Of a stretch of DNA of 12,646 nucleotides, positions 1,482 to 8,560 are shown in pieces. Position 1 is the first letter of the stretch; each line of letters starts with the position of its first letter. The notes beneath the pieces are model-generated. The model worked only from the letters and a program-made list of their open reading frames with translations, ran no database searches and was not told where the DNA came from. A program made the translations under genes and the position numbers. Source of the DNA: a virus (Duplodnaviria; Heunggongvirae; Uroviricota; Caudoviricetes); IMG/VR virus record IMGVR_UViG_2531839662_000020. One strand, written 5' to 3'.

Positions 1482-3143
1482 TTATACCCCATCAAACGCC
1501 GCAAGCCGCTCTTTGTGGCTGTCGCTCATATCGAATGCAAATTCCTCATGTTCTGCCTGGAATGTGCCAAACGCCATCAGCGCCGCAACGCTCGGGTCTA
1601 TCTTGTTGGATGATTTTTTCTTGTTCGGCTTGATATTGGCGTTCGCGTCACTCTGCATCACAACATTACTCATTGACCAGGCCAGCACCGGATCGCCACG
1701 ATGCACAATCACCTTCCGGTTAACAAAAACTTCGAACGATTTCGCCGCCGGACTGAAACGAAGGTATGTTTGCGGGAACGGCTCCACCTCAAATCCTGCC
1801 CCCTGTAGCTGCGTCCTCAGGTGCGTGGCGTTCCATGTATCGAAGCCCACCAGCCTGATATTGAAATTCTCTGCATCCGCCATGATGTCATCACGGATAC
1901 GGTCATAATCAATGCAGTCACCCGGTGTTGTGCGTATCCAGCCCGCCTTTACCCACTGGCGATAGATGGCGCGGTTTTTATTGGCGGGGTTCTGTAGCTG
2001 AAACTCCGGCAGATAGTGACGGGAAACCAGCATAATCTTTTTACCGACCGGAAAGGCATAGCACACGCTGGAAATATCGCTGGTTGATGATAAGTCCAGC
2101 CCCGCGTAGCACTCCTGCCCGTATAAATCCGCCTCCGCGAACGTTCCGGCGCACTCCGCCCATGCACCGTTACCCATCCACGGCGTGGCCCCCTGACACC
2201 AGATATTGAATCGCTTAGTGAGCATTTCCACCCACTGCGACGGAATACCCCGCGCTTTCTGGATGGTTGAGGCCAGTTTTTCACGATCGACGGAAACATC
2301 GATATTGGGATTCGCCTTTATCCACATCGCCGGATCGTCAACCTCGCTTTCATCATCCAGCTCGTAAATCAGCACGAACATGGATTCGTTCACCTCTTCA
2401 CCATCCAGTATCTGGCAGCAATAGTCGTAGTGTTGTTTACAGGCTGAAACAACGTTGCTCCCCGATGTGGTGATGGCAAATAATAACCCCTCCGGACGCG
2501 CCCCCATTCCCAGTTCAAGCGCGGAATAAACCCCGTTGTCAGGGTGCAGGTGATATTCATCCACAATGGCAAGACTCGGGTTTGTACCTTCAATGGTTGC
2601 CGCTTTTGCTGCCAGTGGCTTTAACAGGCTGTTGGTTTTCGGGTGTATCACCTTGTGTGCCTGAATATTTACCCGCTTTCGCAACGGTCGGGATAAAAGG
2701 CACATCTGACGCGCATCATCAAACACGATCCGCGCCTGATCACGACTCACGGCGGCGGTGTAAATATCCTGCTGCCCGTTTTCCATAACCAGAAACCAGT
2801 TAGCCAGGATAGCGGCGACCGTGGATTTGGCATTTTTTCGCGGCACTTCAATGAATGCGCTGGTGTATTTGCGCCGTCCGGTGGCCTTAACCTTAAAGCC
2901 CAGGATGCACGCAAAGGCGAACTGCTGCCACGGCTCCAGCTCAATGGGGCTACCGCGCATTGCGCCTTTTACGTGCGGACACACCCTGGAAAAGGCAATA
3001 AACCGCTCCACGACCTCCGGATCGAACGTGTAAAGGGGGTTTTCAAGGTCAGAAAAATACCGTTTAACGGCCTGTTTCAGTCGTTTACAGGCCGTAATTT
3101 TGCCGTTTTTTACGCCTTCTGCGTACTCATGCCAGGCGGTCAA
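1482..3143 (-). CDS. terL: Terminase large subunit (Terminase_1-like)
   Basis: 553-aa ORF with LEPWQ...F motif and P-loop-like VPRKNAKST near the N-terminus, then a nuclease-type C-terminal half. Apparent TTG start preceded by GAGGA. Overlaps the small terminase by 17 nt. Confidence 0.88.
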   Translation of the reverse strand: MTAWHEYAEGVKNGKITACKRLKQAVKRYFSDLENPLYTFDPEVVERFIAFSRVCPHVKGAMRGSPIELEPWQQFAFACILGFKVKATGRRKYTSAFIEVPRKNAKSTVAAILANWFLVMENGQQDIYTAAVSRDQARIVFDDARQMCLLSRPLRKRVNIQAHKVIHPKTNSLLKPLAAKAATIEGTNPSLAIVDEYHLHPDNGVYSALELGMGARPEGLLFAITTSGSNVVSACKQHYDYCCQILDGEEVNESMFVLIYELDDESEVDDPAMWIKANPNIDVSVDREKLASTIQKARGIPSQWVEMLTKRFNIWCQGATPWMGNGAWAECAGTFAEADLYGQECYAGLDLSSTSDISSVCYAFPVGKKIMLVSRHYLPEFQLQNPANKNRAIYRQWVKAGWIRTTPGDCIDYDRIRDDIMADAENFNIRLVGFDTWNATHLRTQLQGAGFEVEPFPQTYLRFSPAAKSFEVFVNRKVIVHRGDPVLAWSMSNVVMQSDANANIKPNKKKSSNKIDPSVAALMAFGTFQAEHEEFAFDMSDSHKERLAAFDGV

Positions 3144-3483
3144 GCTCGTCCTCTTCCTCTGTTTCCGGTGGATTTCTGCGGCGACTTACCGGGTCAAAAC
3201 CCAGCAAAGAAGCCATTTTGATCATTATTCTTTCCGCGTCAGCCTTTGCGCTCAGGGCGGGGTTTCTGCTCTCGCTGCCCTGACTGTTAACAATGCTGAA
3301 CCCGCGCGTGGCAAGGTCTTCGACGGCTTTGCGGTATATGGAGTAGTTAACGCAATATAGCTCCAGATTGCTCCAGTCGGCGGGGGTAAGGTCTTCCCGT
3401 CCGGAAAGCTGGCGCGATTTTTCCTTCCACTGCCTGACCGCGATTTCATCCAGGTAAGCGGGGGCTTTTGGTGGTCTTGCCAT
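3127..3483 (-). CDS. terS: Terminase small subunit, P27 family-like
   Basis: N-terminus MARPPKAPAYLDEIAVRQW is typical of P27-type small terminases and the length is about 118 aa. The longer track ORF (to 3624) is rejected as an N-terminal extension. Sits immediately upstream of terL. Confidence 0.75.
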   Translation of the reverse strand: MARPPKAPAYLDEIAVRQWKEKSRQLSGREDLTPADWSNLELYCVNYSIYRKAVEDLATRGFSIVNSQGSESRNPALSAKADAERIMIKMASLLGFDPVSRRRNPPETEEEDELDRLA

Positions 3484-3771
3484 GTTCTCTTTTCGCCCAA
3501 TTATTTTCAAAAAAAATCCCGTGCACAAAAATTTGAGGAGGCGGTCGGTGTCCGGCAGGGACGGTTTTGTCCTGAAAACCTCCCCCACCCCCTCTGACGG
3601 CCTCACCAGCGATTGCGAAAACATTCCATGACCTCGCGGTCACGGTCGGTTAATTGCTTCGCTGTGGTGCGTTCTGTGCGCCCTGTCCTGTTGGCTTTGT
3701 GCCCTGTCTCCTGTGTCTTCCATAAGTCACGCTGCCTTATCAGTCCACGTATCAGCCTGTTTTGCTCCTGT
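3484..3771. other. Candidate cos / terminase recognition region (HNH-TerS intergenic)
   Basis: 288-bp non-coding gap between the HNH gene and terS, the position cos occupies in HK97-like phages. Contains two 15-bp direct repeats (3676-3690 and 3698-3714), a C-rich tract at 3578-3600 and an A-tract at 3509-3530. Cut site not determinable from sequence. Confidence 0.3.
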
Positions 3772-6334: not shown

Positions 6335-7504
6335 CTAGCCAGCTTTCATTTCCAGAATTTTGATGGCGTTTGAATCCACCACACCACCGCCCAGATATTT
6401 ATCCGTGTGGACCTTGTAGAATCCGGGTTCAGTAATGTTGTCCGGTCGGGTGCGAATCCCTGTTACATGATCAACGATGAAATAACCACGACTGAAATCG
6501 CCAACCGCTAGCGGTGCTTTTCCTGCGCCGATGTCCGGCATGGACTCCAGGCAGAAAACAGGACGACCAAGCAACATATCCGGCGCACCTTCTTTAAGGC
6601 TGTCGCGCCAGATATAATCGCCATTCTCATTTTTCAGCTTCTGTAGTGTCCCTGCCGTGCCCGAGTTCATCACCCAGACGGCATTTTTGCGGTATTTCGC
6701 TTTCAGCTTGTAGAGAATGTCGATCAGTTCGTCCGCTGTAATGGCGGTTCCACTTGCCGCTACCACTTTTTCAATGGTGCCAAAAGCGCGGGTTTTGTCA
6801 CTGGTCGCCGCACGGGTGTAAGCCATGAAGCCTTTCGGCTTGCCGTTACCGTCGCCATTAACAAAATCATCCTCTTCGGTGCTGGCGAACGTGTCGGCAA
6901 TTTCGGAGGATAACCAGCCCAAAATATCCACCTCTGAAAAATCCAGGATTTCCTGCGTGGTTTTCGGGTAGGCGTAGATCTGATTCAGCTTGATGGTTAC
7001 ACGTTCAATTTTCGGGGTGTTGGTTTCACTACGTGCGCTGCCTTCTGTGCCTCGTCCTACAGTTGCGCCGCCAGTGGAAACCAGTTTCTGAAACTCATTT
7101 GATTTTGCGGTCTTCACGGTCGCGATCACGCGCATAACACTGTCATCCTGTAGCTGGCGCATGACTTCGCGATCAAGCTCAGGAATTACGGTATATCCGC
7201 CATCCCTGCCGCTGTCAGTGCTGGTGGACAGTGATCGCACATCTCCGGTTACGATGTAGTTACGCAATTCATCAGATGATAATTTCTGGATGCCCGTTCC
7301 TGGCTTGCTGCGTTCTTCATCAGCCACAGACTCGAGGCGGTAAATTTCTGTGTCGAGGGAATCGGCTTTTGCACGCAGTTCATCAAACTGTTTGCCCTCG
7401 TCATCGTTCAGGCTGCGGTTTTCACTGTCGGCTTTTTCCAGCAGGGATCGCATCTGGTTTTTCAGGGCGGTTTTTTGCTGGCGGAGTTCGATTAATTTCT
7501 TCAT
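6335..7504 (-). CDS. Major capsid protein, HK97 fold, with N-terminal delta/scaffold domain
   Basis: 389 aa. N-terminal about 100 aa is charged and coiled-coil-like (delta domain), followed by an HK97-like MCP body. First gene after the candidate late promoter. Confidence 0.85.
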   Translation of the reverse strand: MKKLIELRQQKTALKNQMRSLLEKADSENRSLNDDEGKQFDELRAKADSLDTEIYRLESVADEERSKPGTGIQKLSSDELRNYIVTGDVRSLSTSTDSGRDGGYTVIPELDREVMRQLQDDSVMRVIATVKTAKSNEFQKLVSTGGATVGRGTEGSARSETNTPKIERVTIKLNQIYAYPKTTQEILDFSEVDILGWLSSEIADTFASTEEDDFVNGDGNGKPKGFMAYTRAATSDKTRAFGTIEKVVAASGTAITADELIDILYKLKAKYRKNAVWVMNSGTAGTLQKLKNENGDYIWRDSLKEGAPDMLLGRPVFCLESMPDIGAGKAPLAVGDFSRGYFIVDHVTGIRTRPDNITEPGFYKVHTDKYLGGGVVDSNAIKILEMKAG

Positions 7505-7653
7505 GAAGGTTTTCTCGTATTGGTTAAGATTCAGGACGTGAAACCAACACGGAGGGAGCGCCGCCCGACACTCTCGGCATCTCGCAGATCAACCCGGCAT
7601 CGCGCAGGGGGTCAGGCGGCATTGTGGCGGCTCACGTCTGAGTGCCACACGCC

Positions 7654-7726
7654 AACATATACATAAAAATCAGTATGTAAACATCAGCCAGAATCACCGA
7701 ACAACCTGGAACAACCACGAACAAAT
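7654..7726 (-). promoter_or_regulatory. Candidate activator-dependent late promoter for the capsid operon
   Basis: On the minus strand: -35 TTTACA (7676-7681), 16-bp spacer, -10 TATGTT (7654-7659). Upstream are three direct repeats GGTTGTTC / GGTTGTTC / ATTTGTTC with 10-bp phasing (plus-strand GAACAACC at 7699-7706 and 7709-7716, GAACAAAT at 7719-7726). Confidence 0.35.
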
Positions 7727-7741
7727 AATTTACAAAACCTG

Positions 7742-7770
7742 AAAAAAAGACCTGGAGAAAATCCAGGCCT
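7742..7770 (-). terminator. Rho-independent terminator ending the early/replication operon
   Basis: On the minus-strand transcript: stem 7762-7770 pairs with 7748-7756 (9 bp, one mismatch), loop 7757-7761, then a U7 run (plus-strand A7 at 7742-7748). Lies 9 nt after the stop of the 82-aa gene. Confidence 0.65.
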
Positions 7771-7778
7771 TTATCGCT

Positions 7779-8027
7779 TTATTGTTTCACTGGATCCCGC
7801 ATTCTGCGTCTTATTTTCCACAGATATTCGATCATCGCTTCCACCTGCTCACGATTGGTTGCGAAAATTTCCCCGGTCAGTGAGCTGCGCAGAAAATCAT
7901 GATGATCCACAACAAACAACGCATCGGAAGAAAGCAGACGGCGATATTTTTTTGCTGTCGTGGTTTCCAGATCATCAAAACCATGAAACTTTTTATGTTG
8001 CTGGACTTCTTCAAATGTCACTGGCAT
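7779..8027 (-). CDS. Hypothetical protein, 82 aa, translationally coupled to the ProQ/FinO gene
   Basis: ATG start at 8027 overlaps the upstream gene's 3' end by 10 nt. No family recognised. Followed by the terminator. Confidence 0.5.
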   Translation of the reverse strand: MPVTFEEVQQHKKFHGFDDLETTTAKKYRRLLSSDALFVVDHHDFLRSSLTGEIFATNREQVEAMIEYLWKIRRRMRDPVKQ

Positions 8028-8560
8028 GTATCCCCCTTTGCTGCCCGGCGCTGGCGCTTGTGCTTCTCATTCAGCGCCATCAGCCGCGTTTCTGCCTCCT
8101 GCTGTTCCTGTGGTGTCACTTCCCCACATGGCTGGCCTTTCAGGTCGTATCGTACCCCACCAGCAACCAGGGCGCGGTAATAGCGCGGAGACTGCGCATA
8201 AGATGCCAGCGTCGCACGTAATGCCCCCGGCCCGAATGCCAGCCCCCTGACGGCGAGATCCTGCATCAGGTCGTCGAATATCCCCACCTTAAGCGGCTTC
8301 GGTGCTTCCCTGTTGAATAAGTCAGGCCACATCTCAGTGAGGCGGTTAACGCGCCTGCGGTTTTTGCGCTGGCGTTTGGTCATATGCCGCCACGGTGTCA
8401 CCCCTGTGGGCTGCCCTTTGCGGCTCTGCTGTGCGTTCTGATTGCCGGGTATCACTTTATGCGCCGATGTGGTTTTATCCCGCTCTTGCGCCGCCTGCGT
8501 CGTTTTCTGCGGCGTGCCGTAAATGCCTTTCGGTTTTCGGTTAATGGTCAGCTTTGTCAT
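8018..8560 (-). CDS. ProQ/FinO-domain RNA-binding protein with basic N-terminal extension
   Basis: C-terminal two-thirds (WPDLFNREAPKPLKVGIFDDL...LRATLASYAQSPRYYRALVAGGVRYDLKGQPCGEVTPQEQQEA) matches the ProQ/FinO N-terminal domain pattern recalled from E. coli ProQ. N-terminal about 70 aa is Lys/Arg/Gln-rich. AGGGGAAGG RBS. Confidence 0.75.
   Translation of the reverse strand: MTKLTINRKPKGIYGTPQKTTQAAQERDKTTSAHKVIPGNQNAQQSRKGQPTGVTPWRHMTKRQRKNRRRVNRLTEMWPDLFNREAPKPLKVGIFDDLMQDLAVRGLAFGPGALRATLASYAQSPRYYRALVAGGVRYDLKGQPCGEVTPQEQQEAETRLMALNEKHKRQRRAAKGDTCQ

Follow-up and report, generated by a model that had tools for sequence, protein, structure and literature searches.

Attenuators of the trp and pyrBI type, like the expression platforms of riboswitches, combine a 5' hairpin, a downstream blocking hairpin and a segment that can pair with either. 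In phage Mu, the small protein Com, encoded just upstream of its site, frees the Shine-Dalgarno (SD) sequence of a late gene by binding to a hairpin on the 5' side of a stem that inhibits translation, and lambda-type nut sites consist of boxA and a boxB hairpin with a GNRA-like pentaloop. The CI RNA of the satellite P4 is a transcript in which short complementary segments (seqA-seqC) decide termination (PMC10111431), and putL of phage HK022 starts at the first transcribed bases, forms two stem-loops and precedes a long operon (PMC9378689). Capsid-forming PICIs (cf-PICIs), whose family layout has been described, produce capsids themselves and rely on helper phages for tails only (bioRxiv 10.1101/2022.09.08.507074). 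The cf-PICI papers examined make no mention of a promoter or leader and give no account of capsid timing or dosing.

Here we describe a cis-acting RNA, conserved and hitherto unannotated, that forms the leader of the capsid operon in cf-PICIs. It runs from a hairpin next to the promoter (P1) through a variable stem (P2) and a pyrimidine-rich linker to a hairpin next to the capsid start codon (P3). Its parts are those of an attenuator, and one sensor-like 5' part would be joined to two outputs, a terminator in one class of leaders (class 2) and masking of the SD in the other (class 1); the leader differs in lacking the conserved leader peptide, known ligand-binding core or Rfam match of classical examples. 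The likeness to Mu com/mom lies in a short open reading frame (orf82) just upstream of P1 and in the putative masking of the SD by P3; the orf82 product lacks zinc-finger cysteines and shows no similarity to Com that we could detect, and orf82 is not universal among leader-bearing islands. With the P4 CI RNA the leader shares its origin in a phage satellite and the presence of complementary segments in the same transcript, but it heads a capsid operon and not an immunity/Bro zone, and the Rfam families C4 and isrK have no match in the region. HK022 put is likewise a promoter-proximal, two-stem nascent RNA before a long operon. Both stems of put are conserved, with specific bulges, and it renders RNA polymerase resistant to terminators by way of the beta' zinc-binding domain; the leader, for which we detected no similarity to put, has a second stem that is not conserved, and the hairpin that follows is complementary to the element itself. 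Nor is it a nut site of the lambda type, since no boxA-like block is conserved in our alignment of the leaders (alignment A1) and the P1 loop is a tetraloop, GACG.

The leader was studied in a window of 12,646 nucleotides, the whole stretch of DNA analysed (IMG/VR record IMGVR_UViG_2531839662_000020), in which the minus strand is the coding strand for all genes around 7505-7653 (Table 1). The capsid gene is the first of a packaging operon of about 6 kb and is followed on the same strand by genes for a prohead protease, a portal protein, a head-tail connector, an HNH endonuclease, TerS and TerL. Upstream of the leader are genes for a DUF927 replication protein, an SSB and a ProQ/FinO-domain protein, and the 82-aa ORF. 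An identical region is present in Escherichia coli 2014C-3075, within an island of about 14.5 kb that encodes an integrase, HTH regulators, BRO-N and a replication module, then the same packaging module. Satellite size, int/alpA-type regulators, a replication module, its own packaging genes and the lack of tail genes were used to define cf-PICIs; the packaging genes are present in the window and the integrase, HTH regulators and replication module in the matching E. coli island, and by gene layout the island is a capsid-forming PICI, with mobilisation by a helper predicted. The E. coli 2014C-3075 island is flanked by the two halves of a prophage large-terminase gene (locus 1-733 and 15800-16543), from which it follows that the island is embedded in a late gene of a helper prophage, as in the HE-PICI arrangement (PMC10111431).

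Table 1 Coordinates of the leader, its promoter region and the neighbouring genes in the window
Feature	Position	Strand	Basis or remark
HK97-family major capsid ORF	6335-7504	-	Pfam Phage_capsid, E 7.5e-72
Capsid start codon ATG	7502-7504	-	ORF 6335-7504; N-terminus MKKLIELR kept in homologues
P3 hairpin GGUUUC-A-CGU...ACG-A-GAAAACC, ATG-proximal	7508-7545	-	Per-sequence folds
UCACGUC, partner of P1 GACGUGA (7638-7632)	7535-7541	-	97/97 sequences
Pyrimidine-rich single-stranded linker GCUCCCUCCGUGUU	7546-7559	-	
P2 long stem GCCGCCUGAC / GUCGGGCGGC, 10 bp, one U-G	7560-7620	-	Closes variable interior
P1 hairpin GUGGC-A-CUCA-GACG-UGAG-CC-GCCAC	7624-7648	-	Identical in 15 GTDB species representatives
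Sigma-70-like promoter: TTTACA 7681-7676, 16-nt spacer, TATGTT 7659-7654	7654-7681	-	Scan
Upstream box TTTTGTAAATTATTTGTTC, then TTGTTC direct repeats about 10-11 bp apart	7693-7737	-	
82-aa ORF (orf82), phrog_1957, Arg-rich C-terminus	7779-8027	-	No Pfam match
ProQ/FinO-domain protein	8018-8560	-	Pfam E 9e-25

From 7653 to 7505 on the minus strand, between the promoter-like site and the capsid ATG, about 147 nt are non-coding. The initial annotation, made from the sequence of the window, had described a long GC-rich untranslated leader with a weak SD at the capsid ATG, and both statements hold: GC content is 0.65-0.72 in 60-nt windows across 7540-7659 (65-72% GC) compared with 0.33-0.45 in both flanks, and the SD is a weak GAGA at 7516-7513, about 9 nt 5' of the ATG (7504-7502). 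It had also singled out GATGCCG as a short internal repeat. Both copies are present (7575-7581 and 7595-7601), but they are not a repeat motif in their own right: in the RNA, the GAUGCCG copies (7601-7595 and 7581-7575) lie inside the P2 interior as the 3' halves of two degenerate small hairpins, CUGCGCGAUGCCG and CUGCGAGAUGCCG in the window compared with CUGCGCGAAGUAG and CUGCGAGAUGCAG in better-preserved relatives. Across the whole window the motif occurs five times against 2.4 expected, a number reached in 17 of 200 shuffles, so the count alone is not significant. The leader also contains a 33-codon ORF (7525-7622, minus strand, ATG at 7622-7620) that is limited to the subtype of the window; a leader-peptide mechanism was set aside because this ORF is not conserved in other leader members. 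Taken singly, the leader of the window folds with a minimum free energy (MFE) of -54.7 kcal/mol and exceeds its shuffled versions only modestly in stability (z = -1.76), and with a single-sequence z this weak, the evidence for more than chance structure rests on comparison with relatives.

Relatives were gathered from 80 loci with capsid relatives, taking one genome per species (GTDB). A leader directly upstream of the capsid gene was recognisable in 22 of these, and the P1 25-mer, GTGGCACTCAGACGTGAGCCGCCAC, was identical in 15, which span 13 genera of Enterobacterales (Enterobacter, Kluyvera, Pluralibacter, Citrobacter, Rahnella and Kosakonia, and further Pantoea, Erwinia, Winslowiella, Pectobacterium, Rosenbergiella and Serratia, among others); where the 25-mer is identical, capsid identity to the query is only 68-76%. 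A degenerate pattern of the 25-mer found at least 120 IMG/VR contigs, mostly of satellite size (14-18 kb), and a capsid is encoded at 118 of 120 leader loci in IMG/VR. The leader is placed exclusively before capsid genes, and every complete copy ends at the capsid ATG, 119-149 nt past P1. In Xenorhabdus kozodoii, one contig has a leader (contig positions 3221-3364) about 590 nt 3' of one capsid gene and before another ATGAAAAAA start, an arrangement that suggests tandem islands or duplicated capsid genes. Altogether we distinguished 97 leader versions of one shared architecture (alignment A1), preceding capsid genes in at least 14 genera, and the conservation across homologous islands by which the initial annotation proposed to judge the leader is therefore present. 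The window itself holds one copy (class-1 covariance model match at 7502-7656, minus strand, 101.5 bits), and among 5426 complete genomes of E. coli, a leader of either class is present in at least 137 and probably in about 500.

The class-1 P1 motif had no match in the other 58 of the 80 related capsid loci. Those inspected by eye, mostly from Xenorhabdus, have AT-rich leaders with a similar TTTTTCAT context at the -10 element. Such a distribution is what one would expect of a regulator added to some islands, and less of a site that all of them need. Database comparison gave no family for either class: against Rfam 15, the best matches in window 7300-8000 scored 12-22 bits, compared with thresholds of 42-100, and none was on the leader, and the class-2 leader yielded only a 17-bit chance match to a microRNA. 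P1 sequences were not found in the literature searched. We also considered whether the leader is a published EHEC sRNA and discarded the idea; EsrF lies at glnA, and the portion of text searched does not report the location of Esr055.

The promoter is the sole sigma-70-like site in 7300-8100. Its -10 block is conserved and ends 5-7 nt before P1 (119 distinct upstream regions; consensus TTTTcATgTATATcTTgAagaGTGGCA), and this fixed distance puts the predicted start on the first nucleotide of P1, or 1-2 nt 5' of it, and not near the ATG. A start next to the first P1 base is predicted to give a leader of about 147 nt with a base-paired 5' end. Further upstream, TTGTAAAT begins 87-89 nt 5' of P1 in 82 of 119 class-1 and all 21 class-2 upstream regions; about 390 O157-type E. 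coli genomes share nothing else of the region with the window, and the box also precedes leaderless capsid genes of Xenorhabdus. The upstream box is probably part of the control region of the promoter, and together with the TTGTTC repeats it looks like an activator binding array for the capsid promoter. When viral contigs were scanned with the box for new leader classes, 81 new stretches were found, with nothing new beyond five class-2 leaders; the other 76 of the 81 have no leader or capsid-like start and are probably chance matches. AlpA of Pseudomonas aeruginosa, a Q21-like protein, has a GGGACG site between the -35 and -10 elements; a loading site of this type was dropped as a candidate, since that AlpA is not known to be related to the small protein of the same name in E. 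coli PICIs.

Comparison of the leaders identified a common structure that begins with P1, a hairpin of 25 nt in which an internal loop separates an outer stem of 5 bp from an inner stem of 4 bp capped by a GACG loop (MFE -11.4 kcal/mol). Its sequence is nearly invariant, and two-sided changes occur at pairs 12-36 (GC89/AU6), 15-33 (GC90/AU7) and 21-26 (AU90/CG7). P2 varies by subtype in both sequence and interior, with its pairing kept in a stem of 10-13 bp that was present in 20 of 20 distinct middle segments whose folds were inspected. All nine basal pairs of P2 show double changes across the 97 sequences (for example, UA51/AU24/UG13/CG6). As modelled, the interior of P2 may contain one internal hairpin, or else two small hairpins that make it a three-way junction. 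In 65 of 88 variants, P2 is predicted to fold more stably as the sense than as the antisense strand (summed MFE -2197 compared with -2043 kcal/mol), and the predicted stems include 118 G-U pairs, at positions that would be A-C on the opposite strand; this energy bias and the G-U pairs indicate a structure selected in capsid-sense RNA and not in DNA.

After P2, most members have an unpaired C/U-rich tract (CCCUCC, CCCCUCC or CCUUUCC), which is followed by P3. In folds of 54 distinct 3' segments, P3 ends 5-9 nt before the AUG, and in all 54 the only SD-like bases, a GGA or GAG about 9 nt before the AUG, are within its 3' strand. P3 has an energy of -8 to -13 kcal/mol in most members and only -5.7 kcal/mol in the window type, and it is 94% paired in A1 without covariation. 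In the subtype of the window, a competing stem formed by CGUGUUGGUU (7551-7542) and AACCAAUACG (7525-7516) is more stable than P3. A scan of window 7300-8100 for intrinsic terminators returned nothing terminator-like, and P3 is followed by ACCUUCAUG. One hairpin with a T run that the scan left unreported, CCTGGA-TTTTC-TCCAGG at 7742-7769 (minus strand), has the appearance of a terminator; it lies directly after the 82-aa ORF and divides the replication genes from the capsid promoter.

For P1, P2 and P3 together, 95.4% of alignment cells are paired, compared with 39-43% when the partners are slid by 1-3 columns. Double changes occur at 12 pairs and in 172 cells, values that 0-1 of 500 shuffles reach, depending on the measure, and the covarying pairs are the nine basal pairs of P2 and three pairs of P1. 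RNAalifold also recovered P1 together with the basal part of P2, and of the 23 pairs that it predicted, 14 were compensatory. The covariation by which the initial annotation would have the structure judged is thus found as compensatory changes in P1 and P2, with G-U pairs that favour the sense strand. Its broader suggestion, that the leader carries RNA structure used for regulation, is upheld as far as a conserved and covarying structure goes; an output in translation or termination is our inference. The region is very probably a functional structured RNA.

P1 and P3 are complementary to each other over seven bases. GACGUGA, which comprises the P1 loop and the 3' side of the inner stem, can pair either inside P1 or with UCACGUC in the 5' strand of P3, so that a segment with two alternative partners is present. 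All seven long-range pairs form in 97 of 97 sequences, with a duplex energy of -11.1 kcal/mol. At pair 26-141, UA is replaced by GC in seven sequences, the same seven in which the P1 partner has changed; these probably reflect one evolutionary event, and because the same A-to-C change adds a pair within P3, the covariation is ambiguous and, taken by itself, weak evidence. In an alternative fold, the long-range helix forms in place of P1 and P3 and surrounds P2, at an average cost of 6 kcal/mol relative to the MFE. The complementarity is compatible with either a pseudoknot or an alternative helix. When the 7551-7542/7525-7516 stem of the window subtype forms, UCACGUC is in its loop, which makes a static loop-loop contact as plausible as strand exchange in that subtype.

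Class-2 leaders belong to the EcCIEDL933 type of island (O157:H7), which at the DNA level has only the upstream box in common with the window. The class-2 box lies 89 nt 5' of a P1 that matches that of class 1 in size, shape and GACG loop but is fully compensated in the inner stem, where CCAG/CUGG takes the place of CUCA/UGAG; a P2 is present, and its sequence is unrelated to that of class 1. In the same place as the class-1 partner, the 9-nt GCGUCCUGG is a perfect complement of CCAGGACGC in P1. GCGUCCUGG is at the same time the 5' strand of a hairpin, GUCCUGG...CCAGGAC (-14.1 kcal/mol), which is followed by U7-8 and then by the capsid ATG; a simple terminator scan did not call this hairpin, the loop of which is interrupted. 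The class-2 leader is strongly structured (z = -4.6). With default filters, the class-1 covariance model did not detect class 2; with the filters off, the class-2 leader was its best match, at the right position and on the right strand (14.1 bits, rough E 0.001). In both of these sequence-divergent classes, therefore, the loop region of P1 remains complementary to the 5' strand of the hairpin next to the ATG, and the class-2 complementarity is independent support for pairing between P1 and P3.

We propose that the promoter transcribes the leader and that the RNA would then fold into P1, P2 and P3, with P2 serving as a variable spacer stem between the other two. By default P1 and P3 would be folded, the ribosome-binding region masked and capsid synthesis low; opening of P1, or stabilisation of the long-range helix, would disrupt P3 and let translation start. 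In the EcCIEDL933 class the same logic would act on the terminator-like hairpin, and the output would be transcriptional read-through. The off state is 6-9 kcal/mol more stable, and a switch would therefore need a trigger, for which an RNA-binding protein of the satellite or helper, or an sRNA, are candidates. That capsid production is gated after transcription has started is the most likely reading of the locus. A two-state leader in particular, off with P1 and P3 folded and on with P1 paired to P3, has in our judgement an even chance of being correct, its start, switch and output all being deduced; it is supported by one covarying position and by the independent complementarity of class 2, and the near invariance of P3 and of the long-range helix speaks against it. 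A near-invariant P1 beside a freely varying P2 suggests, from the pattern of conservation, a sequence-specific binding partner.

The same structure could work without a switch, if P1 shields the capsid-operon mRNA from decay that depends on the 5' end, and if the P1-P3 contact and the pyrimidine tract form a fixed fold that helps ribosomes to load despite the poor SD. The location of P1 at the predicted +1, which would give a base-paired 5' end, agrees with this, as do the conservation of the weak SD with its C/U-rich linker and, in the window subtype, the exposure of UCACGUC in a hairpin loop that could kiss the P1 loop without any unfolding. We nevertheless regard such a static leader as unlikely: a stabilising hairpin needs no 25 invariant bases, the partner of P1 in class 2 is a terminator-like stem with which the pairing must compete, and related islands manage with short, unstructured leaders. 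Protein operators typically show such extreme conservation as P1 does, internal loop and GACG loop included, beside a P2 that varies freely, and P1 might instead be chiefly the site of an RNA-binding protein of the satellite, helper or host, with the rest of the leader as expression platform; such a protein could be an activator of translation like Com, an antiterminator like N, or unassembled capsid protein that represses its own synthesis. Two neighbouring genes are of interest in this respect. In many islands of either class, a homologue of the 82-aa ORF precedes the leader on the same strand (43% identity in class 2), and in the genome set such homologues accompany 13 of 22 leader-bearing loci compared with 2 of 58 loci without a leader. 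This association is suggestive of a leader partner but confounded by relatedness, orf82 is absent from 9 of the 22 leader-bearing loci at E<1e-5, its AlphaFold model is of low confidence (pLDDT 52), and a word-based homologue search returned close relatives only. The window also encodes the ProQ/FinO-domain protein, which stays below the cut-offs of the NCBIfam models for FinO and ProQ, with scores of about 65 bits; it was rejected as the partner, as its gene is absent from all 22 leader-bearing genome loci and occurs at only 7 of the 120 viral ones. With no boxA-like element conserved either, we consider it quite improbable that P1 is chiefly a protein site, a reading that is in any case compatible with a two-state leader in which the protein is the trigger.

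Two further explanations were weighed, an action on RNA polymerase and a signal in the DNA. Since the leader begins at the first transcribed bases with two stem-loops of about 70-90 nt and a long operon follows, nascent P1 and P2 might act in the manner of put and make polymerase resistant to terminators across the 6-kb operon. We give this very little credence, because P2 varies in sequence, length and internal shape, unlike an RNA in which both stems contact polymerase, and because a constitutive antiterminator followed by a complementary terminator, as in class 2, makes little sense; moreover, the class-1 model with filters off reached at best 5 bits (E>1) in HK022 24000-33000, a span that, going by the position of gene O, should be the early region with PL, PR and the put sites, which the record does not annotate. 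Scarcely credible, finally, is a signal in the DNA itself, whether the site of packaging (cos), an origin of replication or an operator palindrome across +1. In its favour, P1 forms an imperfect palindrome, direct repeats and an AT-rich stretch lie just upstream, and GGGCGGCG at 7564-7557 resembles the start of the lambda cohesive end; GGGCGGCG, however, lies within the variable P2 and is missing from most members. The G-U pairs and the sense-strand energy bias point instead to RNA, the upstream box stands at a constant distance from P1, and islands that differ in their replication protein (DUF927 here, RepA-family in the E. coli 2014C-3075 island) have the identical box. In HK97-like elements the cos site adjoins terS and marks where packaged DNA ends; the ends of a packaged relative of 16.5 kb, LR881103, map to the HNH-terS gap at about 3568 of the window, at GGGGGTGGGGGAGGTTTTCAGGAC, and the leader was rejected as a cos site on this ground, with the proviso that the ends of the record may be author-set.

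The terS ORF called mechanically at 3127-3624 (minus strand) has 165 aa, and its homologues and RefSeq begin at an internal MARPPKAP (about 3483); with this true start, the real gap between HNH and terS is close to 290 nt. The G-rich GGGGGTGGGGGAGGTTTTCAGGAC, at about 3560-3600 of the window (minus strand), aligns with the end of the linear LR881103 record and is likely to be the cos region of the island.

For RNA biology, the leader of cf-PICIs adds a motif that had not been annotated, that covaries well and that is coupled to either of two expression platforms, a combination that has often marked regulated RNA switches. A two-state leader might go further and represent a new class of sensor RNA, in which a core of P1 and the pseudoknot would sense a signal of the helper or satellite, whether protein, sRNA or small molecule, and pass it to interchangeable outputs; we offer this tentatively and think it rather unlikely. 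If it were true, capsids would be made only when helper tails are being made. Lying before the whole packaging operon, the leader offers a concrete, mutable handle on the timing and dose of capsid production in these satellites.
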